64,000 nucleotides of DNA, from the sequence record OL780484.1, one strand, 5' to 3'. Source of the DNA: Escherichia phage vB_EcoM-E33. Positions 496-59,833 of the stretch are shown one piece after another. Made by a program: the position numbers and the translations under genes. The notes under the pieces were generated by a model. That model saw nothing but the letters and a program-made list of their open reading frames with translations, had not been told where the DNA came from and did no database searches. The stretch's first letter is position 1; each line of letters begins with the position of its first letter.

Positions 496-515
496 AAAGG
501 GACTTCGGTCCCTTT
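496..515 (+). terminator. Stem-loop aaagggac-UUCG-gtcccttt, terminator-like
   Basis: Perfect 8-bp stem with UUCG tetraloop, T-run 3' side, directly after stop at 493. Confidence 0.5.
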
Positions 516-544
516 TGGAGTATAATGATTCATCAACAAACAAA

Positions 545-574
545 AGACAATCACTCGTCTATAAAGGAAATGAA
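545..574 (+). promoter_or_regulatory. Putative gene 43 translational operator (hairpin agac-aatcactc-gtct adjacent to SD AAGGAAA)
   Basis: 4-bp stem/8-nt loop immediately 5' of the gene 43 Shine-Dalgarno; T4 gp43 is known to autoregulate by binding a hairpin+SD operator. Confidence 0.35.
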
Positions 575-3286
575 ATGCAAGAATTCTATTTGACAGTCGA
601 ACAAATCGGTGATAATATTCTCGAACGTTACATCGATAAAAATGGTAACGAACGTAGTCGTGAAGTTCCTTACAAGCCTACAATGTTTATGCATGCTAAT
701 CCAGAGCAAGCCGTAAAATACATTGATATCTATGGTAAGGGTTGTGTTAAGAAAGAATTCGACTCTATGCGTGATGCATCCCAATGGATGAAACGTATGG
801 ACGATATGGGTCTCGAAGCCCTGGGTATGGACGACTATAAATTAGCCTATTTGTCTGATACCTATCGTAAAGAAATCAGATATGATTCTTCTAAGATTCG
901 TATTGCTAACTTCGACATCGAGGTAACATCTCCTGATGGATTCCCTGAACCAGCTCAGGCTAAACATCCTATCGATGCCATTACCCACTACGACTCGATT
1001 GACGATAAATTCTATGTATTCGACCTTTTAGTTTCGCCTTATGGTACTGTCGAAGAGTGGTCGATTAAAATCGCTGAGAAACTCCAAGACGAAGGCGGTG
1101 ACGAAGTTCCACAAGAAATCATTGACAAAATCGTTTATCTTCCGTTTAATTCTGAAGAAGAAATGATGCTTGAGTACTTGAATTTCTGGCAACAGAAAAC
1201 TCCTGTGATTTTGACTGGATGGAACGTTGAGTCGTTTGACGTACCGTACGTTTATAACCGTCTGAAAAATCTGTTCGGTGAGAACACTGCTAAGCGATTA
1301 AGCCCACATCGTAAAACTCGTGTTAAAGTTATTGAGAACATGTACGGGGCTCGTGAAATCATTACATTGTTCGGTATCTCTGTTCTGGATTATATCGACC
1401 TCTATAAAAAATTCAGCTTCACCAACCAGCCTTCTTATTCTCTGGATTATGTTTCTGAATATGAATTGAAAGTAGGTAAGTTGAAATATGATGGCCCAAT
1501 CTCCAAGTTACGTGAGACGAACCACCAACGATATATTTCCTATAACATTATCGACGTATATCGTGTAGTGCAGATTGATATGAAGCGTCAGTTCATTCTT
1601 CTGAGTTTGGACATGGGTTATTATGCCAAGATGCAGATTCAGTCGGTGTTCAGCCCAATTAAGACTTGGGACGCTATTATCTTTAATAGCCTTAAAGAAC
1701 AAGGCAAGGTAATTCCACAAGCTCGCTCACACGTGGTCCAACCTTATCCTGGTGCTTTCGTTAAGGAACCGATTCCTAACGCTTACAAATATGTAATGAG
1801 TTTCGACCTTACATCTCTGTATCCGAGTATCATTCGACAAGTGAATATAAGCCCAGAGACCATCGCAGGGACATTCGCTAACGCACCGATACATGAATAT
1901 ATTGCCGGAACTGCTCAGCGTCCTAGCGACACCTACAGTTGCTCTCCTAACGGCATGATGTACTATAAAGACCGTGAAGGTGTGATTCCGACAGAAATCA
2001 CCAAGGTATTCTTGCAGCGTAAAGAACATAAAGGTTACATGCTTGCAGCTCAACGTAATGGTGAGTTAATTAAAGAAGCATTGGAAAATCCTAATCTCTC
2101 AGTTGATAGTCCACTGGATATCGATTATCGTTTTGACTTCTCTGACGAAATCAAAGCCAAGATTAAAGCACTGTCAGCGCCTTCTTTAAGAGAAATGTTG
2201 AAGAAAGCCGAGCTCACTGAAGTTGCAGGTAACACTGCTCAGATTAACCGTAAGTTGCTTATCAACTCCCTTTATGGTGCACTTGGTAACGTATGGTTCC
2301 GTTACTATGACCTCAGGAACGCAACTGCAATCACATTGTTTGGTCAAATGGCCCTCCAATGGATTGAACGTAAGGTTAACGAATATCTGAATAGCGTGTG
2401 TAAGACTGAAAACCAGAAGTTCGTGCTCTACGGTGATACTGACTCCATTTATGTTAAGGCAGATGCAATCATCAATAAAGTAGGCGAAGATAAATTCCGT
2501 GATACTAACCACTGGGTCGACTTCTTAGATAAATTTGCACGTGAACGTATGGAACCAGCTATTGATGCAGGCTTCCGTGAGATGTGCGAATACATGAACA
2601 ACAAACAACACTTGATGTTCATGGACCGAGAAGCTATCGCAGGTCCTCCACTTGGTTCTAAAGGCCTTGGTGGATTCTGGACAGGCAAGAAACGTTATGC
2701 ACTTAACGTTTGGGACATGGAAGGTACTCGTTATGCTGAACCACACTTGAAAATCATGGGTCTCGAAACTCAGAAATCAAGTACACCTAAAGCAGTTCAG
2801 AAAGCTCTGAAGGAATGTATCCGTCGTATGCTTCAGGAAGGCGAGGCATCTTTGCAAGAATATTTCAAACAGTTTAATAAGGAATTTAACGAACTCGATT
2901 ATGTAAGCATTGCAGCAGTATCCAGTGCTAACAACATCGAGAAATATAATGAAGGTGGATTCCCGGGTTCTAAATGTCCATACCACATCAAAGGTTGCTT
3001 AGCTTACATGCGTGCTTCTGCAGGTGATTTGACTATGCCTCGTATCGTTGATGGTGAAAAGGTATATGTACTGCCACTTAAAGAAGGCAACCCGTTCGGT
3101 GAAGCTTGTATGGCATGGCCGTCAGGTATTGAACTTCCGGTTCAGATTCGTGACCAAGTCCTCCGTTGGATGGACTACAACGTACTGTTCCAAAAGACCT
3201 TTATCAAACCTCTGACCGGTTTTACTGAGTCTGCTAAAATCGACTACGAGAAAAAAGCAACATTATTTGATATGTTCGACTTTTAA
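575..3286 (+). CDS. 43: DNA polymerase gp43 (family B, 3'-5' exonuclease + polymerase)
   Basis: 903-aa product starting MQEFYLTVEQIGDN…; strong similarity by recollection to T4/RB69 gp43 incl. exo motifs (FDIEV) and polymerase motifs (SLYPSII, YGDTDS); SD AAGGAAA 7 nt upstream of ATG 575. Confidence 0.97.
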   Translation: MQEFYLTVEQIGDNILERYIDKNGNERSREVPYKPTMFMHANPEQAVKYIDIYGKGCVKKEFDSMRDASQWMKRMDDMGLEALGMDDYKLAYLSDTYRKEIRYDSSKIRIANFDIEVTSPDGFPEPAQAKHPIDAITHYDSIDDKFYVFDLLVSPYGTVEEWSIKIAEKLQDEGGDEVPQEIIDKIVYLPFNSEEEMMLEYLNFWQQKTPVILTGWNVESFDVPYVYNRLKNLFGENTAKRLSPHRKTRVKVIENMYGAREIITLFGISVLDYIDLYKKFSFTNQPSYSLDYVSEYELKVGKLKYDGPISKLRETNHQRYISYNIIDVYRVVQIDMKRQFILLSLDMGYYAKMQIQSVFSPIKTWDAIIFNSLKEQGKVIPQARSHVVQPYPGAFVKEPIPNAYKYVMSFDLTSLYPSIIRQVNISPETIAGTFANAPIHEYIAGTAQRPSDTYSCSPNGMMYYKDREGVIPTEITKVFLQRKEHKGYMLAAQRNGELIKEALENPNLSVDSPLDIDYRFDFSDEIKAKIKALSAPSLREMLKKAELTEVAGNTAQINRKLLINSLYGALGNVWFRYYDLRNATAITLFGQMALQWIERKVNEYLNSVCKTENQKFVLYGDTDSIYVKADAIINKVGEDKFRDTNHWVDFLDKFARERMEPAIDAGFREMCEYMNNKQHLMFMDREAIAGPPLGSKGLGGFWTGKKRYALNVWDMEGTRYAEPHLKIMGLETQKSSTPKAVQKALKECIRRMLQEGEASLQEYFKQFNKEFNELDYVSIAAVSSANNIEKYNEGGFPGSKCPYHIKGCLAYMRASAGDLTMPRIVDGEKVYVLPLKEGNPFGEACMAWPSGIELPVQIRDQVLRWMDYNVLFQKTFIKPLTGFTESAKIDYEKKATLFDMFDF

Positions 3287-3288
3287 GT

Positions 3289-4287: not shown

Positions 4288-5961
4288 ATGAAAAAGGTTG
4301 TTATTTTAGGCGCGGGTCTTGGCTCACGGTTGTATCCAATTACCAACGAAATCCCGAAGGTACTGGTTAACTACAAACAACATACTGTATTAAAACATTT
4401 GTATGATTTGTATAGTAATCAATCAGATGAAATTATTCTGGTTATTCACAGCAAATTTAACGACCTCGTTAAAGGCTATATTAAATCCATTAACATGATT
4501 AATAGTGATAAGCCTAAATTCACTATTCGTAACGTTGATGTTGCCAATGGTTCGGCTCATGCTATCGATTGCATTGCCGAAGATATCATTGGGCACAATG
4601 TCTTGTTTAACTGGTGTGATATTATTCCTGAAGGTCATAAAGTTGAGTGGGATAACGACTACTGTTATACCTATGGGACTGACTGTCGTTTTACATTTGA
4701 AGAACCGTACTTGCGTGAAATTGGTACCGGTGGTGGCGTAGTTGGCTTGTATCAGGTGGCTAATTGGACAGGTTTCGACCGTTCTAATTATGGTGAAGAC
4801 CTTGCTGACAACCTGGATTCAATGGTCCATTTGACTGAACGTAAGTTAGACTTTGTAGTTGATGTTGGTGACAAACTGAAACTGGCTAAGGCGCATGAAG
4901 ATTCTGAAATTAACCGTGAATTTAATAAATTAGAGTTCACCGAGAATCTAGCTATTAAAGTACCAACTAACGAATTGGGTAAAGAAATCCAATCTAAAGA
5001 AATCAATTGGTATAATTCTATTGATTCCGAATTCGTTCCTAGCATTGTAGACTTTGCTCCAGGCGAATTCATTAAAATGGAACGTATCTTTGGTCGAACC
5101 ATGGCAGATGCCTACCGGTTTATGTCTAAAGAAACTAAAGTCCTAATGGTTTATAAGGTTATTAGTGCATTACGTTCGTTCGGTGGAACTATCGATAATC
5201 CGTCCGATGAGCAATGGTATTCTGATGTTAAGAAAGAAGTATTGGACAAGGTCCTTATTCGTAATGCTTCTATTGCCGGATTGATTGAAGGCTTTGCTCC
5301 ACAGGGTATTACCCATGTTAACGACTTCAAGGTAGGCGACCCAGAAAAACTTCTTCGTCACGCCTTAGAAATTCTGTCTGAACATAAAGAACCGTACCAA
5401 CTTATTCATGGCGACCCGCACTACAGTAATATTATGTTGTCGGACGAAGGTAATATTAAAATCATCGACCCACGTGGTTATTTTGGTAATAGTTCTAAAG
5501 GCCCTGCGATTTATGATGAAGCTAAGGTGCTTTATTCTATCGATGGTTATGACAAATTTAACTCTGACCCTCTATGGGGTGGCTTAACTCGTAACGGAAC
5601 TCGTGTATTCGTTGATATTGAAAAGGTTATGCCTTTAGATGATATTCCGATGTGTACATTTAAGCACAAGCTCTGGATTGCTGTTATCTGGATGGCATTG
5701 GCAGGTTACTTTAAAAATAACCCTCTGAAAGCTCTGGGCGCTTATTACAATGGGCTATATCAACTGAGTGTGCTGCTGAAGCGGCATCCTCGTAAGCGTA
5801 AGCTTATCACAGGTGAATTCGTTGATGAAGTTCGCGACCCTATCACGGCTCAAATTATCACTCGTTGTCCTGATAAGTGGGTTTTGCTTGACCAGGAAAC
5901 TGGTGTAAAATATAAACCTACAGGTTCTACCGAACTCCACAAACAATGGAAGAAAATTTAA
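4288..5961 (+). CDS. Bifunctional sugar-1-phosphate nucleotidyltransferase / APH-choline-kinase-like kinase (557 aa)
   Basis: N-term motif ILGAGLGSRLYPIT…PKVLV (canonical G-x-G-x-R-x-P-K of NDP-sugar pyrophosphorylases); C-term catalytic loop LIHGDPHYSNIML…IIDPRGYFG (HGDxxxxN + D motif of APH/ChoK/anomeric sugar kinases); ATG 4288 with SD GAGGAA. Confidence 0.7.
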   Translation: MKKVVILGAGLGSRLYPITNEIPKVLVNYKQHTVLKHLYDLYSNQSDEIILVIHSKFNDLVKGYIKSINMINSDKPKFTIRNVDVANGSAHAIDCIAEDIIGHNVLFNWCDIIPEGHKVEWDNDYCYTYGTDCRFTFEEPYLREIGTGGGVVGLYQVANWTGFDRSNYGEDLADNLDSMVHLTERKLDFVVDVGDKLKLAKAHEDSEINREFNKLEFTENLAIKVPTNELGKEIQSKEINWYNSIDSEFVPSIVDFAPGEFIKMERIFGRTMADAYRFMSKETKVLMVYKVISALRSFGGTIDNPSDEQWYSDVKKEVLDKVLIRNASIAGLIEGFAPQGITHVNDFKVGDPEKLLRHALEILSEHKEPYQLIHGDPHYSNIMLSDEGNIKIIDPRGYFGNSSKGPAIYDEAKVLYSIDGYDKFNSDPLWGGLTRNGTRVFVDIEKVMPLDDIPMCTFKHKLWIAVIWMALAGYFKNNPLKALGAYYNGLYQLSVLLKRHPRKRKLITGEFVDEVRDPITAQIITRCPDKWVLLDQETGVKYKPTGSTELHKQWKKI

Positions 5962-6320: not shown

Positions 6321-6853
6321 AACCAAAAATCATTGTTATCGACGGCCCGGATAATTCCGGGAAGTCTACTTTAATTGAATCACTTTTATCTGATAAGAAA
6401 TATCGTCTTATTGATTTCCCTAAAAAGATTAATGGCAAATGCATTTCATTAGGGACCGATAATGACAAGGCTTTAGTCGAGACGTTGTATAAGTTTTTAG
6501 ACCCTAATTTCGTTTACATCCTTGACCGTGGTTATCCAAGTAATATTGTTTACTCGGGATTCCTTCGCGGTGAAATGGACCCTTATGTAGAACTGGAAGA
6601 TTGGAAAAGGTTTAAATCTGAATTCAATATTATTGAGGTTATTTTAACCCGTAATCCACTGGATAAAGACTTTGAAGATGACCTTATTAAATTAACCAAA
6701 GATGAGTTCAACCTAACTATCCGCCAATACGAAACATGTTTTGAAAACGTGTTTAAAATCTTAAATCACGACGGCCATAATAACTTGCTTAACGTCGATA
6801 TGGTAGAATTAAAACGTCTGAATGAATATATTGAAAATAAGGTGAATAAATGA
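6317..6853 (+). CDS. P-loop kinase, thymidylate/deoxynucleotide-kinase-like (178 aa)
   Basis: Walker A IVIDGPDNSGKST; LDRGYPSNIVYSG resembles dTMP kinase DRY/S…Y motif; GTG start overlapping upstream stop. Confidence 0.65.
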   Translation: MKPKIIVIDGPDNSGKSTLIESLLSDKKYRLIDFPKKINGKCISLGTDNDKALVETLYKFLDPNFVYILDRGYPSNIVYSGFLRGEMDPYVELEDWKRFKSEFNIIEVILTRNPLDKDFEDDLIKLTKDEFNLTIRQYETCFENVFKILNHDGHNNLLNVDMVELKRLNEYIENKVNK

Positions 6854-7548
6854 AACACATTACCGCTGTTAGTTTTGAAAACGCGTTTAAGCAAATGAAC
6901 GAAGAAATCCTGGAAGCTCCACAGTTTGCAGTTGATTCTCGTATCGGCCGTTGTTATGAAATTGGTTCTGCTTCGGTAGAAGTACTGGATGCAAGCACCT
7001 ATAAATTCACCGACCCTCGTATTAATCGTATCAACTATGATTATGCCGAATCTTTCTGGAAGTTTATGATTTCTGGTGGTACTGACGCCGCCGAAGCATT
7101 TAAGGAATACCCTAATGTTGCTAAGTTCATTGATAAGCCGAAAAGTGACGTATTGCCTGCAAACTTCAACACTTTCTATGGACCTAGAATTGTGGCCCAA
7201 CTCCCAGCCTTACTTAAAGAGCTTAAAGAGAAGCCTAACTCAAGACGAGTTGTGTTCCAAATTCTCCAAGAACAAGACCAAGCCCTCCTTGATTCTGACG
7301 AATCCTTAGAATATCCATGTACTGATTCAGTGACATATTATATTCGTGATGGACGTCTTTATGCACATACCCATATGCGTTCACAGAACTGTGCTATTGT
7401 TATGCAGCTGGATTTCTATCTGCAGGGTAAACTGATGGCCTTTATTGCTGAACAGTGTGGTGTTGGTCTGGGTACGTATTCCCATACTATGGTTAGTGCA
7501 CACGTATTTGAACGTGATTTTGACTACGTTCGAGGATTCCTGAAATGA
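6850..7548 (+). CDS. 42: dCMP hydroxymethylase gp42 (thymidylate-synthase fold)
   Basis: 232 aa; position between imm and uvsX as T4 gene 42; TS-like C-terminal region; start overlaps upstream stop. Confidence 0.8.
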   Translation: MKHITAVSFENAFKQMNEEILEAPQFAVDSRIGRCYEIGSASVEVLDASTYKFTDPRINRINYDYAESFWKFMISGGTDAAEAFKEYPNVAKFIDKPKSDVLPANFNTFYGPRIVAQLPALLKELKEKPNSRRVVFQILQEQDQALLDSDESLEYPCTDSVTYYIRDGRLYAHTHMRSQNCAIVMQLDFYLQGKLMAFIAEQCGVGLGTYSHTMVSAHVFERDFDYVRGFLK

Positions 7549-9688: not shown

Positions 9689-10010
9689 TTTATCTGATTT
9701 AGATAATTTCGTTAAAGATACCGAAGAGGGTCCTAGTGACCCTCGTTATTATGAGAAATCATTAGATATAATCCGTAAGTCAATGGGTTCTGTTAAGCAG
9801 GAAATTATGCTTACTTTACCCGATGGCACTGCTCACATCGTTTATGTGATGAATATTGTTATTGAGAAAGATGGAAAAGTGTCGGTTGATTTCGGAACAC
9901 CTTCCGAAGACCGAAAAGAAGAGCTAGCGCTTCATGTAGAAAAATGTGTTACAATGCAAATACAAGAAGAACTGGATAAAATTAAATCTAAGAGGTGGTG
10001 GAAGTGGTAG
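9681..10010 (+). CDS. 40: gp40 head vertex assembly chaperone homolog
   Basis: 109-aa ORF between uvsX and 41 as in T4. Confidence 0.6.
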   Translation: MTDLSDLDNFVKDTEEGPSDPRYYEKSLDIIRKSMGSVKQEIMLTLPDGTAHIVYVMNIVIEKDGKVSVDFGTPSEDRKEELALHVEKCVTMQIQEELDKIKSKRWWKW

Positions 10011-11434
10011 AAACTATTTTGGCTCAACTGCTAGGCAATAGTGATTATTTCACTAAGGTCTGGCCTTATATGAATGATTCTTATTTTGACCAGGGTCCTG
10101 CAAAGACCCTTTTCAAAGAAATTAAAAAACACGTCAATGAATATAATGCAGTGCCTTCTAAGAACGCATTGAGCATTGCATTAGATAACAGTACGCTTTC
10201 AGAAGTTGAACATCAAGGCGCTAAAGAGCTTTTAAGTTCGCTGAACGCCGGGCCTGAAGACCAAGAATGGTTGGTTAAAGAGACGGAGAAATACGTTCAG
10301 AAAGCAGCGATGTATAATGCAACTTCAAAAATCATTGAAATCCAAACTAATGCCGACCTTCCAGTTGAGCAACAAAATAGAAAACTTCCAGGTATTGGTG
10401 CTATTCCAGATATCATGCGTGATGCATTATCGATTTGTTTCGATTCTGAATTAGGTCATGACTGGATGGATGACTATGAAGAACGATTCAAAAGTTATTC
10501 CGATAAAGCACGTAAGGTTCCGTTCCGTCTTAATATTCTGAATAAGATTACCAAAGGTGGTGCTGAGTTTGGTACTGAAAACGTATTGTTGGCAGGAACA
10601 AACGTAGGTAAGTCTCTTGGTCTTTGTTCATTGGCTGCTGATTACCTTCAATCTGGTTACGATGTTCTTTATATCTCCATGGAGATGGCAGAGGAAGTAT
10701 GTGCTAAGCGTATCGATGCCAACCTTCTGGACGTGTCGCTGGATGATATCGATGATGGTCACGTCTCGTGGCCTGAATATAAAGCTAAGATGGATAAATG
10801 GCGTTCAACTGCTACTTTAGGTCGTTTAAAGATTAAACAGTATCCTACTGGCGGTGCTAATGCCGATACATTCCGTGCATTATTAAACGAATACAAGCTC
10901 AAACAAAACTTTGTCCCACAGGTCGTTATCGTTGACTACTTGGCTATCTGTGCATCGTCTCGTACGAAAGTTTTCTCTGAAAACAGTTACGGATTGATTA
11001 AGATGGTTGCTGAAGAACTACGTGGACTTGCAGTAGAGAAGAAATTACTGTTGTGGACTGCAGCCCAGACTACTCGTGGTGCGAACGTTGCAGCCGAAAT
11101 CGATATGGCCGATATTGCTGAATCCTTTGGTATTGCACATACTGCAGACTTCATGTTGGGTGTGGTCGAGACAGAAGAGTTCGCTCAGATGGGTATGCAG
11201 ATGGTTAAGCAGCTTAAATCTCGTTATGGCGATAAGAGCTACTACAACAAATTTAAGATTGGTGTTAAGAAAGGAAATCAACGTTGGTACGAAGTTGAAG
11301 ATGATTCCAACCCAGGCCCAGTGAACACTGTTCGTGAGGCTACAGGTGAGATGAATCGCCAGGCCGAGGTCAATCGACAGACGCGTGTTAATAGAAGTGA
11401 TTTGGACGATTTAGCAGCATCTATCAAATTTTAA
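10004..11434 (+). CDS. 41: Replicative DNA helicase gp41 (DnaB-like)
   Basis: MVETILAQL… matches T4 gp41 MVEIILSHL…; Walker A GTNVGKS; GTG start at 10004 after SD AAGAGG (ORF track starts upstream at 9995). Confidence 0.93.
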   Translation: MVETILAQLLGNSDYFTKVWPYMNDSYFDQGPAKTLFKEIKKHVNEYNAVPSKNALSIALDNSTLSEVEHQGAKELLSSLNAGPEDQEWLVKETEKYVQKAAMYNATSKIIEIQTNADLPVEQQNRKLPGIGAIPDIMRDALSICFDSELGHDWMDDYEERFKSYSDKARKVPFRLNILNKITKGGAEFGTENVLLAGTNVGKSLGLCSLAADYLQSGYDVLYISMEMAEEVCAKRIDANLLDVSLDDIDDGHVSWPEYKAKMDKWRSTATLGRLKIKQYPTGGANADTFRALLNEYKLKQNFVPQVVIVDYLAICASSRTKVFSENSYGLIKMVAEELRGLAVEKKLLLWTAAQTTRGANVAAEIDMADIAESFGIAHTADFMLGVVETEEFAQMGMQMVKQLKSRYGDKSYYNKFKIGVKKGNQRWYEVEDDSNPGPVNTVREATGEMNRQAEVNRQTRVNRSDLDDLAASIKF

Positions 11435-11456
11435 GGAGCTTCGGCTCCTTTTTTGT
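11433..11456 (+). terminator. Rho-independent terminator (aaggagc-UUCG-gctcctt + T tract)
   Basis: Stem-loop followed by TTTTTGTTTT immediately after gene 41 stop. Confidence 0.6.
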
Positions 11457-11463: not shown

Positions 11464-11492
11464 GTTTACATCTCCTGTAGGCGTGATACTAT
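11464..11492 (+). promoter_or_regulatory. T4-type early promoter
   Basis: GTTTAC, 17 nt, TGaTACTAT, then CTATCAACT leader. Confidence 0.55.
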
Positions 11493-12038: not shown

Positions 12039-12098
12039 CAGTTTACATCAAAGGGATAATGCAGTATATTATCCCTATCAACTACCGAGGAGAACATT

Positions 12099-16320: not shown

Positions 16321-16345
16321 AAGGAACCTTCGGGTTCCTTTTTTT
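16321..16345 (+). terminator. Rho-independent terminator (aaggaacc-UUCG-ggttcctt + T7)
   Basis: 8-bp stem, UUCG loop, TTTTTTT tail right after soc. Confidence 0.7.
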
Positions 16346-39751: not shown

Positions 39752-39769
39752 ACTTTTCTCCTTTAAAGA

Positions 39770-39777
39770 TATTTATA
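39770..39777 (-). promoter_or_regulatory. T4-type late promoter TATAAATA (holin t)
   Basis: Reverse complement of tatttata, ~19 nt upstream of t start. Confidence 0.6.
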
Positions 39778-39788
39778 GAGCTTATGCA

Positions 39789-40595: not shown

Positions 40596-40609
40596 GGGGC
40601 CGAAGCCCC
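40596..40609 (-). other. ggggc-UUCG-gcccc hairpin between gene 37 stop and gene 38 SD
   Basis: Read on - strand: …GAGGGGCUUCGGCCCCUUGGAGGUUUAUAUG. Confidence 0.5.
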
Positions 40610-40614
40610 TCTTA

Positions 40615-43941: not shown

Positions 43942-43949
43942 AATGCCTC

Positions 43950-44597: not shown

Positions 44598-44630
44598 TTG
44601 AGTTTCCTTTGGGAGTTATAGCCTTTTATA

Positions 44631-44638
44631 TATTTATG
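44631..44638 (-). promoter_or_regulatory. Late-promoter-like element CATAAATA (7/8 match) upstream of gene 36
   Basis: ~34 nt upstream of gp36 ATG, same spacing as gene 34 late promoter. Confidence 0.3.
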
Positions 44639-44640
44639 GC

Positions 44641-44674
44641 CGTAGAAAACGAAAAAGGAACCCGAAGGTTCCTT
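44641..44674 (-). terminator. Rho-independent terminator after gene 35 (aaggaacc-UUCG-ggttcctt + T-rich)
   Basis: Hairpin overlaps gp35 stop; followed on - strand by TTTCGTTTTC. Confidence 0.55.
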
Positions 44675-45794
44675 AATATTTTTCTCTAAATTCAGCGACC
44701 CAAACCTGACCAGGTTTAGTGCCTGTTTTATCATATAGCTGGGCTATGGTAGTACCCATATTTTTAGTTTCTGTACCAAAGTTCATACGAATACCGTTAA
44801 CACCAAATTCAGCGGGTTTTGGCTGAGGTTCTGATTCAGATATCTCACCGAACATAACATTTCGAACTCCACCTTGTCCGGCCGAAGCTGTTTTTCTGGC
44901 ATAAAGGGTAAAGTCTGTAGTACCTTCAGGAACCATTACTACCCGTTCAAATGTCATCCATGCACCAGCAGGAACGTTGGAAGGAACGTCCATATTAACT
45001 GTCCCGGTTAAAGCACCTGAGGCATTAAAAAATCTAACAGACATCTGAGAGGTCCCGACGTCTTTTAAAGCTTGGTCGCGCATTAATTGAAACTTAAGGT
45101 AAAAGAATTCACCTGGTTTCATATTATAATCTGTTAATGGGGTTGTAGGAGATTCGGTAGGAAATCGCTTAATTTCATCTCCATCATTGCTTAGATAAGT
45201 GCTTTCGTCTTCAACAATTCTGACAGGATATCCTGTACCACCAACGTCGCTGATATCATCAAATACCACTTCTAATGGGGTAGAAACATCTTCGACCAAT
45301 ACCCCATCATTATAAAGCACATGTTCCATTACTATAGCATTCCTTCCTGAAACATAAAATGCCGAATAAGACGGCTCGAAGCGGTCTATTAGCCATTTAG
45401 ATGGAAATGCGGTACTTCCTGCTGCACGGAACCAATCGATAAGTTTTTGTGAAGCATTTAATCTACCAGAAGATACTAAACAAACTATTCTATTAGCCGG
45501 TATAGAATTTATATACGTTATAAAAGCTTCAGAAATAACATCAAAATCTTTTGTAAAACTATAAGTTTTGTTAGCCACTATTTTGGGTTCAGCACTAACA
45601 TCGATTTCTATAAGGTTTAATCCATTTTGAAAATTCTGGGAACCGAAGTTCCCATCTTGAAATTTAACATATGCTTTTGTGGTAGACTTAGTACAACTAC
45701 CAGCTATACTAAGTTTATACCTCACAGCATTGTTTTCAGATAATGTAGGAACCTGGACATATCCTTGTCCAAATTCTGCCATAAATCTTTCCAT
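44673..45794 (-). CDS. 35: Long tail fiber hinge protein gp35
   Basis: 373 aa (T4 372 aa); synteny. Confidence 0.85.
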   Translation of the reverse strand: MERFMAEFGQGYVQVPTLSENNAVRYKLSIAGSCTKSTTKAYVKFQDGNFGSQNFQNGLNLIEIDVSAEPKIVANKTYSFTKDFDVISEAFITYINSIPANRIVCLVSSGRLNASQKLIDWFRAAGSTAFPSKWLIDRFEPSYSAFYVSGRNAIVMEHVLYNDGVLVEDVSTPLEVVFDDISDVGGTGYPVRIVEDESTYLSNDGDEIKRFPTESPTTPLTDYNMKPGEFFYLKFQLMRDQALKDVGTSQMSVRFFNASGALTGTVNMDVPSNVPAGAWMTFERVVMVPEGTTDFTLYARKTASAGQGGVRNVMFGEISESEPQPKPAEFGVNGIRMNFGTETKNMGTTIAQLYDKTGTKPGQVWVAEFREKY

Positions 45795-45802
45795 AATACC
45801 TC

Positions 45803-48800
45803 TTATTCAATCCACTCAAACTTAACGGATTTAGTGACCGGGTCAGGAATAATACGAACGTTACCAATACGTAACCAATCAAGGATTGTAATGTTACCCA
45901 TTGTAGCGTTATCAGCAGGCAATGCACCAACCTCTTCAGCAGAAGGAGGGTTATCTGCCGTATAGACCATAGAGAACGTAGTCCATGCGTTTTTATTTTT
46001 CTGCCAGGTACGTGTATAACGAATAGTACCACCATTCAGTCCTGTAGGATAGCACACCCAATCCTGATAACATGAATCCAATGTATTACCAAACTGAGTT
46101 AACGTACCAGGATATTTAACTTCCTTATCACGAACAGAATAATCAAACCAAGTACCACGTAATTTCTGACCTGATGTACCGAGAACCTCGTCACCAAAAC
46201 TACCGTCTTCGTTACGATAACGAATAGCCGGAGAACTAAATGCACCTGTTTCTGTTAACCAACCAGAAGCATTCCATATCTCGTCAGAAACACCGGCAGG
46301 TTTAGTTTGGACCGTATCAATATTAACCTGACGTTTAGTTTTCATCGTCCAATAACCAGGGAACAGGTTAAATGTAGCCGAATCATCGATATCGACAGAC
46401 CAGAAGCCAACGGTTTCTGCAGTAGGGGCCTGGGATGCTAATGTAGGTTTAACACCAACAGAACGGACGTATTTTTGAGCAACCAAACCATTATTTGCCG
46501 ATACCTGCCCGGTGGAAACGATAGTACCTGAAGTAGTTACGTTTTGCAACGAAGACAGAGCAGAAGCATTTAGTGTGGTTGTAGAAACACCGTTAGAAGT
46601 GGTTATACCTGTGATATTAGCATTCTTAGAAATACTAATGGAACCACTATTAACAGCAAAGTCACCAGTCGTATTAAAGGTCCAGTAGAAAGATTCTAAA
46701 GAACCCGGCGATGGAAGATAATGTATTTTAAAATCACGAGTTCCGTCGTTTACAGTGCCTAAAGAGAATGTACCTTGCCCTAAACGTTGTTTAACAATAG
46801 GATGGAACTTGGCATCCGGGGTCGAATTTATCTCGGCAAAAATCGGAGCTAAAGTATCACCTTGAGAGTTCCAAGTACCTGCACCAGATTGGGGTCCTAC
46901 AAATTTAATAGATTTACCTGAGCTAACAGATACATCATTTTTAAAAGTAGAATTTCCAGTTACTTCTAGAGAACCTAAAATAGTGTTGCCGGTAATATTA
47001 GCCGTACTAGAAGACACCAGAGGAGCGGCCAGGTTCAATTGTTTTGTCAACGTTAAAGAACCATTAACCGTTTGGTCAACGTCTCTACGAATGAACTGGA
47101 GTGAATCTAGGCCATCCAATTTCTCGGAGTTCACAGCCGTAGCATTTATAGGTAAAAAGTTCTGTAAAGTTTTATTCATCTCGTAAGATGAAACAGCATA
47201 ACCTGTTTTAGGGTAGTTAGCTGCGTTCAGAACAGTATCGTCATTCTCATAAAGGCCTGTACCTGAGTTAAATTTAACACCAGAACCAGTAACTTTATTT
47301 CCTGAATAGGTTAAAGCACCTTCGGTTAGTTTAACAAATCCACGACGAAGTGCAGTAGCTTCCCAAGTGGTTTCAGTTTGTACTACATATTTTAAACCAG
47401 AAGGGCTTACAGCCAGAACTTTAGAAGTTCCTGCGGTTGTTTCGGTATTCGTTGCAACACGAATAATACCTTCAGAACTTTCAGTAGATTTTTTATAATG
47501 CAATTTCAAAGGAGTGATGATAGTTTTATCATCGGTACCAACGTTGACTTCGGTCTGGGTCGCCAGGCGAGCAGTACCACGTTGTGTCTCATTTGCTTCT
47601 CTAATATCTAGTGTATAATGGTTCCATAAGGTTCCTGATTCAATCAAACCACTGGCTGCTGAGACAGAAGTTCTAGCAGTATCATTAAATCTTGTTTTAA
47701 CTTTCAACGGAGTTGAAATAACATTATCTAACGTACCAGCATCAAATTCTACCTGTGTTGCAATTCTAGCAATACCAGTCAATCCTTCCGTAGCTTTCCT
47801 ATCATTTAACGTCTTAGGCGTTACCGCACGAGTATAATCTGTTCCAGTATCAGTTTCCTGTTGCGTAGCAATTTCAATTAACCCTGTACGAGTATCAAGG
47901 GCCACACGAGCATGTAATGTTTCCGGAGAAACAGCACTGTTGGCAAATCCACTTGCAGTTTGACCTGCGTTAACTTCAGATTGGTTAGAAAGATATACTG
48001 TACCCTGTTGAACTTGGGTAGCTTTATACTGGTCGAGAGCTTTAGGAGAAATAACCAAATTGCCTACGTTCTTATTATAAACGTTAGTACCTACAGTGTC
48101 TCTAGCAGTCGCAGGAGTGGTTCCTACAGTAGAGGTATATGTTACAATACCTGAAAGACTTTCCGAACCCTGGCGTGCTTGTAGCTTCTTAGGAGTGATG
48201 ATTGTAGTATCATCTGTACCCGTGTTAGTTTCAACTTGCGTAGCAATTTCAGCAACACCACGGCGAGTTTCGGTTGCAGTACGTTCGTTTAATTTCTTAG
48301 GAGAAATAATCAAATCGTCCTGGAATGCGAAGGTTGTGTCCTGGTTCACCTGAGCAGTAGTAGCAATACGAGCAATACCACGACGAGATTCAGTCGCTAC
48401 ACGATTAGCTAAAGTCTGTGGAGTAATTGCAAGTTCTTTCTCAGGGTTATTTTCATGGTCAACGTTTGCCTGAGTCTGCGACGCAAGGGCAATAACACCT
48501 AAACGAGCACGAGTTAAATCATCTTTAGAATCTACACGTTCTATAGTAGGAACGTTCTGAGCAACAACCCAATATTTGCCACCTGTAGTGGTGTCTTCGA
48601 TATAACTCAGTTCAATAACCGGAGTATAACTTATATTGCCATTAAAGGTCAGTACGTCATTCAATACCCATTCGGTTTCTGGTGGATATTCTGAACGTTT
48701 AGGGAATTGAAGCAACTGGACGGATGAAGCAATCTTATCTCCTACGGCAGCCTTAATATTTACTGTCTGAGCTTTACGGAGATAGTTCAGAGCAATCTTA

Positions 48801-49852
48801 ACGACATCACCCTGGGCCACACCGGTAGGTAATGTGATATTAATTGTCTGGGGTGTCGTGTTATTAGGACCAAAAACAATAACACTTTCGTTAGCCAAGA
48901 GTTCAACATCGTCACGAATTACACGTAAACGAGTTTGTCGGTCGCCGTCCCAAACATACCATAATTTTTCGGTAGAGTTATAAACAAAGAATCCATCACC
49001 TGAAGTACGGAATTCCATGCTATGCTGGCCAGGCTTACCTAATGAAGATGACGCATCAAATGTTTCAACGATTAAGTGGAATTTACTTCCTAAACCATCG
49101 ATATCAACGGTTTTAATAATATCACCTTGGTTCGCATACTTAGGAAGAGTAAACTTAATTACTGCACCTGAAGTATAACGACGTAAAACGTTATCACCCG
49201 CTTGTGATTGGAACTGGGCGGTGTTCGGTTCTACACGAATACCACGTTCTTCATTAGCTGCTTCCCAGAAATGCCATAAACGGTTGGCAAAGATAATCAT
49301 ATTATAGGAAAAAGGCTTCGTAATTAAGGTCTCAGTGAACTGGTTACCGAAACGGACAATTTTCTGATTACCACCACCTGGAGCAGAACTAGACTGGAGC
49401 TTAATTTCATTATAACCTACACGGCCACCAATATCCTTGATTACGATGGTATCACCATCAGTAGGGTTAGGAGGCAGGGTAAACGTAGTAAAGCTAGCAG
49501 CAGAATCCACAGCAATATATTCACCGGAAGCCAGCTGGCGTGTAGGAGATGCTACGGTAATCCATTTAGGGTCAGTACGGGTAGCAGTCCAATAACCTGG
49601 TACAAAGGCTCCTGCCGGAGCATCGATATCACGTTGAGCAACCCAGATACGTTGGTCATGGATTACGGCAAACCCTTTCTTATATCCGCGCGTCTCGTCG
49701 TACGCCTGGATGGTGTTCTCATCTATAAAGAATTCAACGTTGACGCCGTCGTCTAATACATTGTAATCGGCTTTGGCAACATTGATAACTTTCTCGCCTG
49801 CAGCATCGAGTCCGGATGTAGCACGGAAGGCAGGTTTTAAAATATCGGCCAT
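45803..49852 (-). CDS. 34: Long tail fiber proximal subunit gp34
   Basis: 1349 aa; internal repeated …TRRG.A.IAT…ITP.KL… motifs typical of gp34; SD AAGGAAA; late promoter. Confidence 0.93.
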   Translation of the reverse strand: MADILKPAFRATSGLDAAGEKVINVAKADYNVLDDGVNVEFFIDENTIQAYDETRGYKKGFAVIHDQRIWVAQRDIDAPAGAFVPGYWTATRTDPKWITVASPTRQLASGEYIAVDSAASFTTFTLPPNPTDGDTIVIKDIGGRVGYNEIKLQSSSAPGGGNQKIVRFGNQFTETLITKPFSYNMIIFANRLWHFWEAANEERGIRVEPNTAQFQSQAGDNVLRRYTSGAVIKFTLPKYANQGDIIKTVDIDGLGSKFHLIVETFDASSSLGKPGQHSMEFRTSGDGFFVYNSTEKLWYVWDGDRQTRLRVIRDDVELLANESVIVFGPNNTTPQTINITLPTGVAQGDVVKIALNYLRKAQTVNIKAAVGDKIASSVQLLQFPKRSEYPPETEWVLNDVLTFNGNISYTPVIELSYIEDTTTGGKYWVVAQNVPTIERVDSKDDLTRARLGVIALASQTQANVDHENNPEKELAITPQTLANRVATESRRGIARIATTAQVNQDTTFAFQDDLIISPKKLNERTATETRRGVAEIATQVETNTGTDDTTIITPKKLQARQGSESLSGIVTYTSTVGTTPATARDTVGTNVYNKNVGNLVISPKALDQYKATQVQQGTVYLSNQSEVNAGQTASGFANSAVSPETLHARVALDTRTGLIEIATQQETDTGTDYTRAVTPKTLNDRKATEGLTGIARIATQVEFDAGTLDNVISTPLKVKTRFNDTARTSVSAASGLIESGTLWNHYTLDIREANETQRGTARLATQTEVNVGTDDKTIITPLKLHYKKSTESSEGIIRVATNTETTAGTSKVLAVSPSGLKYVVQTETTWEATALRRGFVKLTEGALTYSGNKVTGSGVKFNSGTGLYENDDTVLNAANYPKTGYAVSSYEMNKTLQNFLPINATAVNSEKLDGLDSLQFIRRDVDQTVNGSLTLTKQLNLAAPLVSSSTANITGNTILGSLEVTGNSTFKNDVSVSSGKSIKFVGPQSGAGTWNSQGDTLAPIFAEINSTPDAKFHPIVKQRLGQGTFSLGTVNDGTRDFKIHYLPSPGSLESFYWTFNTTGDFAVNSGSISISKNANITGITTSNGVSTTTLNASALSSLQNVTTSGTIVSTGQVSANNGLVAQKYVRSVGVKPTLASQAPTAETVGFWSVDIDDSATFNLFPGYWTMKTKRQVNIDTVQTKPAGVSDEIWNASGWLTETGAFSSPAIRYRNEDGSFGDEVLGTSGQKLRGTWFDYSVRDKEVKYPGTLTQFGNTLDSCYQDWVCYPTGLNGGTIRYTRTWQKNKNAWTTFSMVYTADNPPSAEEVGALPADNATMGNITILDWLRIGNVRIIPDPVTKSVKFEWIE

Positions 49853-53131: not shown

Positions 53132-53157
53132 GGGAAGACTTCGGTCTTCCCTTTTTG
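53132..53157 (+). terminator. Rho-independent terminator (gggaagac-UUCG-gtcttccc + T5)
   Basis: 8-bp stem, UUCG loop, TTTTTGG after gene 32. Confidence 0.7.
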
Positions 53158-53167: not shown

Positions 53168-53196
53168 GTTTACAACGCCTTTAAACGTGATACTAT
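53168..53196 (+). promoter_or_regulatory. T4-type early promoter
   Basis: GTTTAC, 17 nt, TGaTACTAT, CTATCAACT. Confidence 0.55.
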
Positions 53197-54167: not shown

Positions 54168-54222
54168 GTTTACACCAGGCTATGGTAGTGATACTATAGC
54201 CTTATCAACTAAGGAGAATAAA

Positions 54223-56260: not shown

Positions 56261-56326
56261 ATATCAGTCCATGCTTAACAGGTTCTATGATAGAATAATT
56301 ATAGAACCTAACATATTGAGGAAATT

Positions 56327-58582: not shown

Positions 58583-58635
58583 TAAAATCTGATTATAATT
58601 GACTCATGGATGAGTCACTAACAAATGAGAATAAC

Positions 58636-59814
58636 ATGTCTACAGTTTTTAATACCACCCCAGTTGATGTTTTAGTCGAACCGATGTTCTTTGGTTCAGG
58701 ATTGGGTATTGCTCGTTATGATATCCAACGCCATAAAGTATTCGAAGAGCTTTGTGAGAAGCAGTTGAGTTTTTTCTGGCGTCCAGAGGAAGTTAACTTG
58801 ATGATGGATGCTGCCCAGTTTAATAAGCTTCCACAATTCCAGCAAAATATTTTTACCAATAATCTGAAGTATCAATCACTTCTGGATAGTATCCAAGGAC
58901 GTGCTCCTTCTGCTGCACTTCAAGCCTTGATTTCAGACCCTAGCCTTGATACATGGGTGGCTACATGGACCTTTAGTGAGACTATTCACTCTCGTTCATA
59001 TACCCATATCATGCGTAACCTCTATACAGACCCGTCAAAGGTATTTGATGAAATTCTGTTAGATGACGCTATTATGAAACGTGCTGAATCTATTGGTCGT
59101 TATTACGACGACGTTATTGAGAAAACTCGCTATTGGCAGAATGCTAAAGCTGATATCGAATACCAAAAAGAAATTAATGCAGACGAAGACGATATTGAAG
59201 ATGCTATTGAGCATGAGATGTATTGGAAGCGTGAGCTAATGAAATCCCTTTACCTTTGCCTTCATGTAATCAACGCATTGGAAGCTATTCGTTTTTATGT
59301 ATCTTTCGCATGCACCTTTAACTTCCATAAAAACATGGAAATCATGGAAGGTAATGCTAAGATTATGAAGTTCATTGCACGTGATGAACAGCTTCACCTT
59401 AAAGGTACTCAGTACATTATTCGTCAACTCCAACTTGGTACTGACGGTGACGAATGGGTTAAAATTGCTCAAGAGTGTGAACAAGAAGCAGTTGATATTT
59501 TCATGGAAGTTAACCGTCAAGAAAAAGAATGGGCTGCTCACCTGTTCAAAGATGGTACTTGCCCTGGATTAAATACTCAGAACATGGGTGCTTTTGTCGA
59601 TTACCTGACAGTTTCTCGTATGAAGCAATGTGGCTTACCGTGTCCTATTACTGATGCTCCTGCCCGCCATCCTTATCCTTGGATTCGCGAATACCTGAAC
59701 TCTGATGCTGTACAGGCTGCTCCTCAGGAAGTGGAAATAAGTTCTTACCTTGTAGCACAAATTGATAACGATGTCGATGAAAAAGTAATGGCATCGTACA
59801 AGAAATATTTTTAA
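58636..59814 (+). CDS. nrdB: Ribonucleotide reductase small subunit NrdB (uninterrupted, no intron)
   Basis: MSTVFNTTPVDVLVEPMFFGSGLGIARYDIQRH… matches T4 NrdB; start at ATG 58636 by homology (ORF track begins 58606). Confidence 0.9.
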   Translation: MSTVFNTTPVDVLVEPMFFGSGLGIARYDIQRHKVFEELCEKQLSFFWRPEEVNLMMDAAQFNKLPQFQQNIFTNNLKYQSLLDSIQGRAPSAALQALISDPSLDTWVATWTFSETIHSRSYTHIMRNLYTDPSKVFDEILLDDAIMKRAESIGRYYDDVIEKTRYWQNAKADIEYQKEINADEDDIEDAIEHEMYWKRELMKSLYLCLHVINALEAIRFYVSFACTFNFHKNMEIMEGNAKIMKFIARDEQLHLKGTQYIIRQLQLGTDGDEWVKIAQECEQEAVDIFMEVNRQEKEWAAHLFKDGTCPGLNTQNMGAFVDYLTVSRMKQCGLPCPITDAPARHPYPWIREYLNSDAVQAAPQEVEISSYLVAQIDNDVDEKVMASYKKYF

Positions 59815-59819
59815 GGAAT

Positions 59820-59833
59820 GGGGCTTCGGCCCC
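59820..59833 (+). other. ggggc-UUCG-gcccc hairpin between SD-like AAGGA and denA start codon
   Basis: Hairpin lies between AAGGA (59814-59818) and ATG 59842; folding would shorten the effective SD-AUG spacing. Confidence 0.4.

Follow-up and report, generated by a model that had tools for sequence, protein, structure and literature searches.

CUUCGG hairpins at cistron boundaries in a 64-kb segment of the Dhakavirus vB_EcoM-E33

A 64,000-nt stretch of Escherichia phage vB_EcoM-E33 (OL780484.1; hereafter the window) carries a recurrent hairpin with a UUCG tetraloop, which raises the question of what this family is and which tasks its members could serve. The window is a Dhakavirus segment (T4-like, Bp7/JS98 group) running from regA/gp43 to pseT, is 96% identical to phage LHE83 and 94% identical to Bp7, and has the gene order of T4. 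Its hairpins are the extra-stable "CUUCGG hairpins" of phage T4 mRNAs, real but already known. In T4, they were first described by Tuerk et al. 1988 (PNAS 85:1364, as cited in PMC4371310 and PMC8948821) and are abundant, mainly intergenic and varied in function; gene 32 mRNA, for example, is stabilised by a 5' hairpin of this kind (PMC8948821; PMC4371310); 3'-end protection, processing and translation-initiation control are the roles proposed for such hairpins in the T4 literature. With good confidence, we explain the family as a reusable, extra-stable folding module, a C(UUCG)G-capped GC-clamp RNA hairpin that is placed at cistron boundaries and does several jobs.

Census, orientation and conservation

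Perfect stems were sought around TTCG, and a hairpin was counted if its stem had at least 5 bp closed by C-G. The window holds 14 such C(UUCG)G hairpins (Table 1), whereas 100 dinucleotide shuffles gave 0.53 on average and never more than 2; C(UUCG)G is its commonest tetraloop hairpin, and the hexamer CTTCGG is present 51 times where 19.5 copies would be expected. A preliminary description of the DNA spoke of at least 13 members and listed 12, all of which are present no more than 2 nt from where it placed them (27701 becomes 27699–27716, and 40596 becomes 40594–40611); the two additional members are 45637 on the minus strand and the weak 6966 on the plus strand. Its term "near-identical" holds for part of the family. 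The identical 20-mer AAGGAACCTTCGGGTTCCTT stands at 16321, 36331 and 44655 and five further hairpins fit AAGG..CCTT, whereas the remaining stems are unrelated (GGAGGC, GGCGTC, GGGAAGAC, GGGGC and TGGGAAC). The roles that it suggested, in 3'-end protection, processing or translation-initiation control, agree with those put forward for T4; it had not identified the family as the one long known from that phage.

All 14 hairpins fold as predicted, with dG of −7 to −17 kcal/mol including flanks. The z-scores of single hairpins are modest (−1.3 to −3.9), so that the case rests on collective statistics and conservation. Every hairpin lies on the sense strand (p = 6e-5 under random orientation), as do all 25 such hairpins of the whole Bp7 genome when checked against its annotation, and 11 of the 14 fall in the non-coding 6.9% of the window (p = 5e-11).

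Table 1. Hairpins and associated features in the window
Position	Strand	Stem-loop or feature	Location	Downstream sequence	T4 orthologue
496–515	+	AAAGGGAC-UUCG-GUCCCUUU	between small ORF after regA and gene 43	U GGAG TATAAT (short U-run, then −10-like box)	AAGGGGC-UUCG-GCCCCUU, NC_000866 29952–29969, between regA and 43, then TTGGAGTATAAT
6966–6981	+	UUCUGC-UUCG-GUAGAA, weak (dG about −5 alone)	inside ORF 6850–7548		
11433–11450	+	putative terminator	overlaps gene 41 stop	U6 run; early promoter TTTACA-16-TACTAT at 11465–11492	
16321–16340	+	AAGGAACC-UUCG-GGUUCCUU	putative soc terminator	U7 run, then early promoter (GGTTTAC...)	AAGGACUCC-UUCG-GGAGUCCUU, 15303–15324, after soc
25601–25616	+		after gene 39.1	short U-run, then MotA-box-like middle promoter for gene 39 (ATGCTTTAA, 12 nt, TAATAT)	AAAGGCC-UUCG-GGCCUUU, 5381–5398, then AGCTTTA-N12-TATAAT
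27699–27716	+		after small ORF downstream of gene 39	early promoter TTTACA-17-TAGGAT at 27724–27752	
31494–31509	+	GGAGGC-UUCG-GCCUCC	between rIIB stop and denB.1 RBS	no U-tract; GAGG 4 nt downstream, AUG at 31522	
34465–34542	+	stp gene, 25 codons			
34525–34540	+	GGCGUC-UUCG-GACGCU	last five stp codons (G V F G R)	no U-tract; stp stop, then GAGG, AUG at 34553	165510–165525
36331–36350	+	AAGGAACC-UUCG-GGUUCCUU	downstream of gene 52	U6 run; early promoter 36375–36402	
40594–40611	-	GAGGGGC-UUCG-GCCCCUU	between gp37 stop and gp38 SD	SD GGAGG at 40593–40589, AUG at 40583–40581	
44655–44674	-	AAGGAACC-UUCG-GGUUCCUU	putative gene 35 terminator	U-run; late-promoter-like cATAAATA upstream of gene 36	
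45637–45654	-	UGGGAAC-UUCG-GUUCCCA	inside gene 35, codons 47–53		
53132–53151	+	GGGAAGAC-UUCG-GUCUUCCC; z = −3.9	putative gene 32 terminator	U5 run; early promoter 53169–53196	
59813–59844	+	denA translation initiation region (TIR)	SD AAGGA 59813–59817 overlaps nrdB stop	conserved AUG at 59842	
59820–59833	+	GGGGC-UUCG-GCCCC	between denA SD and AUG	8 nt from hairpin to AUG	

Our comparison with T4 reveals the same motif, a short GC-rich stem bearing a UUCG tetraloop closed by C-G, which in this T4-type phage is likewise chiefly intercistronic and on the sense strand. Five window hairpins (regA/43, soc, 39.1/39, stp and 37/38) have positional orthologues with UUCG loops in T4. By comparison, the density is higher here, with 14 hairpins per 64 kb versus 8 in the 69-kb syntenic part of T4, and T4-type relatives carry other loops where the window has UUCG, namely GCAA at denA and CUAGU after gene 32, with UUUG or UUCG at the 35/36 junction. 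The converse is found in the gp40 coding sequence. At the gene 32 and 35/36 terminators, the 37/38 and rIIB/denB.1 junctions and the denA TIR, the position is kept while the stems have diverged yet remain complementary. Loops of several stable tetraloop classes (UUCG, UUUG, UCCG, GAAA, GCAA, GUAA and CUUG) replace one another, which argues for selection on stability rather than on a recognition sequence. Judged by sequence context, the 14 members would divide into eight terminator-like hairpins, three that abut a Shine-Dalgarno sequence (SD) and lack a U-tract, one between SD and AUG, and two within coding sequence.

Hairpins followed by a U-run and a promoter

The preliminary description had placed most hairpins directly after stop codons with T-tracts and had read them as terminators; the intrinsic-terminator appearance is borne out. 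Eight hairpins (496, 11433, 16321, 25601, 27699, 36331, 53132 and 44655) are candidate intrinsic terminators or attenuators. Strong T-runs follow 11433, 16321, 36331, 53132 and 44655, and short runs of four U follow 496, 25601 and 27699, which may be weak attenuators. As in Rho-independent terminators of E. coli and phages, a GC-rich stem-loop and a U-run stand right behind a stop codon, and upstream A residues can pair with the U-run; eight hairpins fit this pattern, five of them strongly, whereas six window hairpins have no U-tract and are therefore not classifiable as terminators. In each third of the window, CUUCGG hairpins take the top ranks among terminator-like sites. Terminators have been predicted between genes 35 and 36 in six of six T4-like genomes, and the one after gene 32 is conserved in five of six (PMC1524935). 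In our comparison, the putative gene 32 terminator occupies the same place in 19 relatives, with differing stems and with UUCG, CUAGU or GUUAU loops.

A new promoter lies within about 15–45 nt after each of these eight hairpins, being early after 11433, 16321, 27699, 36331 and 53132, middle-like after 25601, late-like after 44655 and probably middle-like after 496. The U-run hairpins would end one transcription unit, and the next would begin at the promoter just downstream. The same composite terminator–promoter layout is found in the PeSL/PmSL cassettes (Arbiol et al. 2010, PMC2839356; Comeau et al. 2014, PMC4122927), in which a stem-loop, an AT-rich stretch, an early (TTTAC-N17-TAnnAT) or Mot-box promoter, an SD and an AUG share one intergenic space, and whose PeSL stem-loops are effective terminators. 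The five sites with early promoters have the PeSL-type layout and 25601 has the PmSL type. They differ from PeSLs in that several adjoin conserved core genes (41, soc, 52 and 32) rather than ORFans in hyperplastic regions, and many early promoters of the window have no UUCG hairpin.

This likeness bears on a reading at the level of DNA, in which the hairpins are copies of a repeat or PeSL-type cassette, owe their similarity to gene conversion or transposition, and serve mainly in modular gene shuffling. Three copies are indeed identical over 20 nt, five lie in PeSL-like cassettes whose early-promoter part forms a repeat family of at least 10 copies, and PeSLs recombine and form mini-circles in RB49/phi1 (PMC2839356; PMC4122927). 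However, identity ends at the hairpin, and the three identical copies have unrelated flanks. Viral contigs, many of them unrelated, also carry the 20-mer AAGGAACCTTCGGGTTCCTT, in 87 stretches altogether; among 80 copies examined, 71 have at least five T within the next 8 nt, and the flanks differ between unrelated contigs, so that convergence on a good terminator suffices to account for the identity. Furthermore, orthologous junctions in T4 and other genera carry hairpins with diverged stems, indicating vertical descent, and the complete sense bias here and in Bp7 is predicted by an RNA function but not by a DNA palindrome. We consider a primarily DNA-level role unlikely; recombination at the terminator–promoter cassettes may be a side effect.

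Hairpins at ribosome-binding sites and within genes

Strong comparative evidence comes from denA, where the preliminary description had already placed the 59820 hairpin between SD and start codon. Of 27 relatives, 26 carry a hairpin there, in 11 distinct stem-loop sequences altogether, and 98.5% of alignment cells are paired, a percentage biased upward because the covariation sets were chosen by hairpin search at each junction, the junctions themselves being set independently by the flanking genes. Compensatory changes occur at four of six pairs, and the covariation score is 0.636 versus 0.197 in shuffles, a value that none of 500 shuffles reached. The linear AAGG-to-AUG distance is kept at 24–25 nt in most relatives. 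By looping out 14 of 24 nt, the hairpin would reduce the SD–AUG spacing to about 10 nt. This suggests that the ribosome-binding site of denA is split in the manner described for T4 genes 38 and 25 (Nivinskas et al. 1999; Malys & Nivinskas 2009; taken here from the review in PMC3014915). The likeness lies in a stable hairpin that separates SD and AUG, at denA 24 nt apart, and that would shorten their effective distance, at denA to about 10 nt. The denA structure is conserved with covariation across T-even-type phages. The gene concerned is denA rather than 38 or 25, and the window's own gene 38 lacks the split arrangement because its SD follows the hairpin. Our literature search found no earlier description of a split site at denA.

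For gene 38, the preliminary description had claimed the SD–hairpin–start order at 40596, which proved mistaken: the gp37 stop is followed by the hairpin, GGAGG, 5 nt and the gp38 AUG, an order kept in all 13 relatives examined, and only T4 itself, whose gp38 is unrelated, has the hairpin between SD and AUG. Hairpins 31494 and 34525 lack a U-tract, as had been noted, and none follows 40594, 59820 or 45637 either. At 31494, a GGAG motif is sequestered in the stem, and in a clade of relatives the rIIB/denB.1 junction carries a GGGGAC/GUCCCC stem with UCCG and CUUG loop variants. T4 GGAG motifs within UUCG stem-loops are resistant to RegB (PMC1702504). The preliminary description missed that 34525 is not intergenic; translation, T4 annotation and orthologue alignment place it in the end of stp. 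It is built from minor codons (GGC 21%, GTC 12% and CGC 10%), and in some relatives a synonymous change turns its loop into UUUG. The hairpin could be partly a by-product of the conserved peptide GVFGR, for which the codon-usage-weighted chance of at least 5 bp is about 8%.

We infer from their sequence context that 31494, 34525 and 40594 do not terminate transcription. Instead, they would shield the upstream cistron from 3'-to-5' exonucleases and, once the transcript has been processed, form a cap at the 5' side of the downstream cistron, and they would leave the neighbouring SD unpaired; the 31494 stem would also shield its GGAG motif from RegB. In the T4 gene 32 leader (Gorski et al. 1985, as cited in PMC8948821), a CUUCGG hairpin 5' of the cistron confers stability, and the hairpin–SD–AUG order at our three sites would give the downstream cistron such a 5'-side hairpin. 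Inside gene 35, the Dhakavirus-specific 45637 hairpin appears in sister Dhakaviruses as UGGGGAC-UU(C/U)G-GUCCCCA, an A-U to G-C compensatory change made by two non-synonymous substitutions (N to D and S to P).

The hairpins at 31494, 34525, 40594 and 45637 might instead work on transcription rather than on the mRNA, as hairpin-dependent sites of pausing or attenuation that balance upstream against downstream gene expression. Their stability equals that of the terminator hairpins, their sites are cistron boundaries at which stoichiometry may be important (gp37/gp38 and gp34/gp35), and behind 45637 stands GAAUUUUCAAAAU, which is weakly U-rich. Intrinsic termination, however, requires a U-tract right behind the stem, and here the next 10 nt contain one to four T, none adjacent to the stem. 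Moreover, ribosomes translating through 34525 and 45637 would melt both co-transcriptionally, and the tight hairpin–SD spacing (0–4 nt) is conserved, which points to a translational or stability role. Such a transcriptional role is thus quite improbable.

Several hairpins adjoin ribosome-binding sites (31494, 34525, 40594 and 59820), as might be expected if a particular phage or host protein bound or cut them, such as the repressors RegA and gp43 or the nucleases RegB, RNase E and RNase III. The AAUGAGGAA that follows 31494 and 34525 resembles RegA-type targets, but (A/C)UGAGGAAA-N-AUG is the ordinary early-gene ribosome-binding site of the window (repeat families D7, D14, D17 and D18). Hairpin 496 lies upstream of gene 43, whose T4 mRNA has a gp43 hairpin operator, although the loop of that operator is UAAC and not UUCG (PMC3014915). 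Neither paralogues nor orthologues keep the stem sequence, and GNRA and CUUG loops can stand in for UUCG, an exchange that would not be tolerated by a sequence-specific protein. The UUCG tetraloop has been described as binding no proteins (PMC4371310), and UUCG stem-loops resist RegB, as mentioned above. Dedicated protein sites are therefore very unlikely.

Although one or two members (6966 and possibly an in-gene one) fall within chance expectation and CTTCGG is also elevated outside the hairpins, a chance or compositional origin of the family is ruled out by the enrichment over shuffles, the denA covariation, the conservation, the complete strand bias and the non-coding location. The 6966 hairpin itself is probably a chance member, since about 0.5 such hairpins are expected by chance.

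A set of C(UUCG)G hairpins on the transcribed strand

We scanned the window for perfect stems around TTCG, and counted as family members those stems of 5 bp or more that end in a C-G closing pair. Fourteen C(UUCG)G hairpins with Watson–Crick stems of 5–8 bp were found (Table), and they represent the commonest tetraloop hairpin type in the window. All 12 hairpins listed in a preliminary description were recovered, at most 2 nt from the positions reported there, and two were added: one inside gene 35 (45637; hairpins are named by their start coordinates) and a weak one at 6966, also within coding sequence, which is probably a chance occurrence. The motif count suggested there as a check gave 14 hairpins in the window and 25 across the Bp7 genome; 100 dinucleotide-preserving shuffles of the window averaged 0.53 and gave 2 at most. 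In predicted folding, 14 of 14 fold as drawn; without flanks, their nearest-neighbour ΔG values are -8 to -13 kcal/mol. The earlier characterization of the hairpins as near-identical holds for part of the set, with three identical 20-mers (AAGGAACCTTCGGGTTCCTT) and five more fitting an AAGG..CCTT pattern, whereas the remaining stems are unrelated. An Rfam scan of the whole window returned 0 matches at the gathering threshold, and the hairpins have no Rfam family.

The window belongs to the genus Dhakavirus (Tevenvirinae) and shares 96% identity with Escherichia phage LHE83 and 94% with Bp7; its gene layout was read from the annotations of Bp7 and T4. The 14 hairpins are without exception on the strand that is transcribed locally (p = 6e-5 under random orientation), from which RNA would carry UUCG, not CGAA, at each of them. 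Furthermore, 11 of the 14 fall in the non-coding 6.9% of the window (outside ORFs of 40 codons or more; p = 5e-11), and all 25 hairpins of Bp7 are sense by a check against its annotation. The sense orientation, the non-coding location and the Bp7 count are evidence for an RNA-level feature. Chance is excluded as their origin by the shuffle counts, by covariation at denA, and by the strand bias together with the non-coding location. The hexamer CTTCGG occurs 51 times in the window compared with 19.5 expected. After removal of the 14 hairpins, CTTCGG/CCGAAG still occurs 37 times across the window versus 19.5 in shuffles, an approximately twofold excess that codon or dipeptide effects probably explain.

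In 1988, the abundance of CUUCGG hairpins in T4 mRNA reportedly began the study of the UUCG tetraloop. The T4 phenomenon (Tuerk et al. 1988), as far as it is summarised in PMC4371310 and PMC8948821, shares with the window set the same motif, the mRNA sense, the mostly intercistronic location and orthologous instances. Our finding is this T4 CUUCGG-hairpin phenomenon in a Dhakavirus, combined with terminator–promoter cassettes of the PeSL type and a predicted split ribosome-binding site (RBS) of the gene 38/25 type. The preliminary description is largely borne out, in that the hairpins are real and their interpretation mostly right; the phenomenon itself was already known. The denA split RBS, the hairpin inside gene 35 and the annotation corrections for stp and denA are small additions, and the biological gain is small, since the CUUCGG hairpins, terminator–promoter cassettes and split RBSs of these phages have been described. 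One easily searched motif marks the predicted ends of T4-like transcription units and some ribosome-binding sites, and is usable for predicting operon boundaries and correcting start codons, as for denA.

Table. Hairpins, gene blocks and other located features
Feature	Position	Strand	U directly after stem	Surroundings
regA/gene 43, uvsX, 41, 61, soc, modA/B, dda, 39, rIIA, rIIB, denB, ndd, 52, motA, asiA	from 1	+		
t and tail-fibre genes 38 to 34	39098-49852	-		
rnh, 59, 32, frd, td, nrdA, nrdB, denA, rnlA, pseT	after 49852	+		
Hairpin, terminator-like (predicted)	496	+	about 4	regA/43; TATAAT directly after, same element in T4
Hairpin	6966-6981	+	no tract	
Hairpin, terminator-like (predicted)	11433	+	5-7	early promoter GTTTAC-N-TGATACTAT at 11465
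Hairpin, terminator-like (predicted)	16321	+	5-7	soc; early promoter of same family
Hairpin, terminator-like (predicted)	25601	+	about 4	39.1/39; Mot-box-like promoter ATGCTTTAA-N12-TAATAT
Hairpin, terminator-like (predicted)	27699	+	about 4	early promoter of same family at 27724
Hairpin before SD	31494	+	no tract	
Hairpin before SD	34525	+	no tract	in stp
Hairpin, terminator-like (predicted)	36331	+	5-7	early promoter of same family at 36375
Hairpin before SD	40594	-	no tract	37/38
Hairpin, terminator-like (predicted)	44655	-	5-7	cATAAATA, late type
Hairpin in coding sequence	45637-45654	-	no tract	gene 35, codons 47-53
Hairpin, terminator-like (predicted)	53132	+	5-7	early promoter of same family at 53169
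Hairpin, predicted split RBS	59820	+	no tract	nrdB stop TAA overlapping AAGGA, 2 nt, hairpin, 8 nt, denA AUG 59842
Gene stp	34465-34542	+		
Gene 40 hairpin	9726-9744	+		codons ~15-22, ~45 nt after uvsX stop
Gene 40 hairpin in T4 (NC_000866)	22329-22348			same position
GGAGGC-UUCG-GCCUCC in Bp7 (NC_019500)	68859-68874			rIIB/denB.1
GGAGGC-UUCG-GCCUCC in Bp7 (NC_019500)	107707-107722			30.7/30.6
Early-promoter family, positions include	11459, 19339, 22696, 33190, 36369, 38751, 49895, 53163, 53874, 61395	+		
Inverted repeats around -10 box	12052-12076, 23826-23849, 24458-24484, 33949-33974, 54177-54202, 56280-56309, 62704-62727	+		

Terminator-like hairpins and downstream promoters

Eight hairpins are followed directly by U residues and are predicted to be terminator-like, the fit being weak at the three with the shorter tract; all eight rank top among the terminator-like sites in consensus scans of the window. 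A promoter-like element lies downstream of each. The early promoters after 11433, 16321, 27699, 36331 and 53132 fit TTTAC(A/T)-N16-17-TAnnAT, and stem-loop, promoter and SD/AUG are combined in one intergenic region at these five hairpins and, with a Mot box, at 25601. This is the same terminator–promoter composite as PeSL and PmSL of T4-like phages. The stem-loop of one PeSL cassette terminates as well as rrnB T1 (PMC2839356; PMC4122927), the reporter assay having been done in RB49 (PMC2839356), and T4-like genomes conserve predicted terminators downstream of gene 32 and at the 35/36 junction (PMC1524935). No relevant 3'-end maps of T4 came up in a literature search. The possibility that the GCTTCG loop doubles as a MotA box (TGCTT) was rejected, as T4 and the window disagree in its distance to the -10 element at regA/43, and hairpin 25601 has a proper Mot box on its downstream side.

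The early promoters number at least 10 on the + strand and share about 40–60 nt (GTTTAC-N17-TGATACTATAGACCTATCAAC...); only about five have a UUCG hairpin upstream. In addition, inverted repeats of 8–12 bp surround the -10 box of seven early-promoter-like sequences, resembling those PeSL stem-loops of RB49 that overlap a -10 box as well as the RBS sequestration of the T4 e/soc type. Read-through transcripts would form a hairpin beside the downstream RBS at these repeats, and transcripts initiated at the repeat-bracketed promoters would be without its 5' arm.

Hairpins at ribosome-binding sites

The hairpins that have no U-tract could be pause or attenuator sites, which we regard as improbable. 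At 31494, 34525 and 40594 the order is hairpin, SD, AUG, with 0–4 nt from the stem end to GAGG or GGAGG and a further 4–5 nt to AUG. The hairpin at 40594 had been described as lying between SD and start codon; both here and in 13 relatives, GGAGG instead lies 3' of it, 5 nt before AUG, so that the gene 38 of the window does not have a split RBS. The order SD, hairpin, AUG was seen in T4 alone, and the gp38 of T4 is unrelated. In T4, GGAG motifs within UUCG stem-loops are RegB-resistant (PMC1702504) and gene 32 mRNA is stabilised by a 5' CUUCGG hairpin (PMC8948821). By analogy, and with a GGAG motif found inside the stem of 31494, we infer that these three hairpins may act as an exonuclease barrier, a 5' cap or an SD insulator. 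The same layout occurs in Bp7 at e.6, 30.7/30.6 (with the same GGAGGC stem) and 6/7. The two GGAGGC-UUCG-GCCUCC copies of Bp7 are identical at unrelated junctions, each directly before a GAGGAA RBS, and the copy at 30.7/30.6 has an annotated start codon at the hairpin edge. The string AAUGAGGAA after 31494 and 34525 was considered as a RegA operator and rejected, being a general early-gene RBS in the window.

Hairpin 34525 is not intergenic: it is formed by the five codons (G V F G R) that end stp, a gene of 25 codons in the window and 26 in T4. Minor codons build it (GGC 21%, GTC 12%, CGC 10%). For the peptide alone, 5 bp or more would be expected in about 8% of cases, and this hairpin is therefore weak evidence by itself. 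In T4, the stp product activates PrrC, an anticodon nuclease of the host; the stp gene of the window shares 1 base with the ndd stop, and stp is without annotation in the Bp7 record.

The hairpin at 59820 does lie between SD and start codon, as had been described. AAGGA and the denA AUG are 24 nt apart in the linear sequence, which formation of the hairpin would shorten to about 10 nt, and the linear AAGG-to-AUG spacing is 24–25 nt in most of 27 relatives. The hairpin is present in 26 of the 27, in 11 distinct stem-loop sequences. Covariation was computed on a loop-anchored 18-mer alignment, used in place of MAFFT because stem lengths differ and MAFFT misaligned the stems. In this alignment, 98.5% of cells are paired, both-side changes occur in four of six pairs, and the covariation score is 0.636 compared with 0.197 in shuffles, a value that 0 of 500 shuffles reached; every slid register scores lower. 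Both the overlong SD-to-AUG distance and the conserved hairpin with compensatory changes expected of a split RBS are found here. In T4, such hairpins cut the distance from 22 to 5 nt at gene 38 and from 27 to 11 nt at gene 25 (PMC3014915). The denA arrangement matches this established mechanism, and 59820 is a predicted split RBS of this type; no description of it was found in the literature searched. ORF callers and the annotation of Bp7 use an in-frame ATG at 59818 that is not conserved. Most lineages are without an upstream in-frame denA start, and in several a stop codon lies in frame inside the hairpin or at it. In the RefSeq annotations of Bp7 and T4, denA starts within the hairpin's 5' arm, at an ATG or GTG (145/144 aa), while the conserved AUG gives a protein of 137 aa.

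For the hairpin inside gene 35, gp35 orthologues were extracted by tblastn. Sister Dhakaviruses have UGGGGAC/GUCCCCA in place of UGGGAAC/GUUCCCA, a single A-U to G-C compensatory event that amounts to two non-synonymous changes (N to D, S to P); in other genera this hairpin is absent. It is conceivable, though we hold it doubtful, that in Tevenvirinae the SD-proximal hairpins are a distinct, conserved and uncatalogued class of modules for translation and stability. Its members may be the denA split RBS, the stop-hairpin-SD-AUG junctions (rIIB/denB.1, stp and 37/38; e.6, 30.7/30.6 and 6/7 in Bp7) and the gene 35 hairpin; if so, RNA structure constrains protein sequence in gene 35.

Conservation in T4 and relatives

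The T4 region syntenic with the window (69 kb) contains eight C(UUCG)G hairpins, all sense. Five of them share junctions with the window, namely regA/43 (496), soc (16321), 39.1/39 (25601), stp (34525) and 37/38 (40594); the gene 60 bypass hairpin, which is well known, is among the remainder. The junction hairpins are kept in IMG/VR relatives, with stems that have diverged but retain complementarity, as at 37/38 and nrdB/denA. Across 19 loci, the gene 32 terminator has the stems GGGAAGAC, GGGGACC, UGGGAGAC, AAGGGACC and others, with loops UUCG, CUAGU and GUUAU. The 35/36 terminator has loops UUCG, UUUG, GAAA and GCAA, and the rIIB/denB.1 junction has the stem GGAGGC versus GGGGAC and the loop variants UCCG and CUUG.

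The three identical 20-mers might suggest a repeat that is mobile or recombinogenic at the DNA level, but this reading is disfavoured. The identity of these copies stops at the hairpin, orthologous junctions hold hairpins with diverged stems across genera, and the strand bias is complete. Furthermore, AAGGAACCTTCGGGTTCCTT occurs in 87 stretches of viral contigs, and many of the 80 copies examined are in unrelated contigs (31–60% GC) with unrelated flanks; on the flank comparison and this occurrence in unrelated phages the 20-mers were rejected as a mobile repeat. Among the 80 copies, 71 have at least five T in the next 8 nt, and the recurrence is best read as convergence on a good terminator. 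A site for a specific protein is likewise disfavoured by the variable stems, the swapped loops and the known properties of UUCG loops. The loops interchange among known extra-stable tetraloop classes, which argues for selection on stability and not on a recognition sequence.

Gene 40 also contains a strong hairpin, with a T4 counterpart that differs in sequence, peptide and loop (CUAGU in the window, UUCG in T4), which suggests a conserved structure within the coding sequence, perhaps a 3' barrier for uvsX mRNA.
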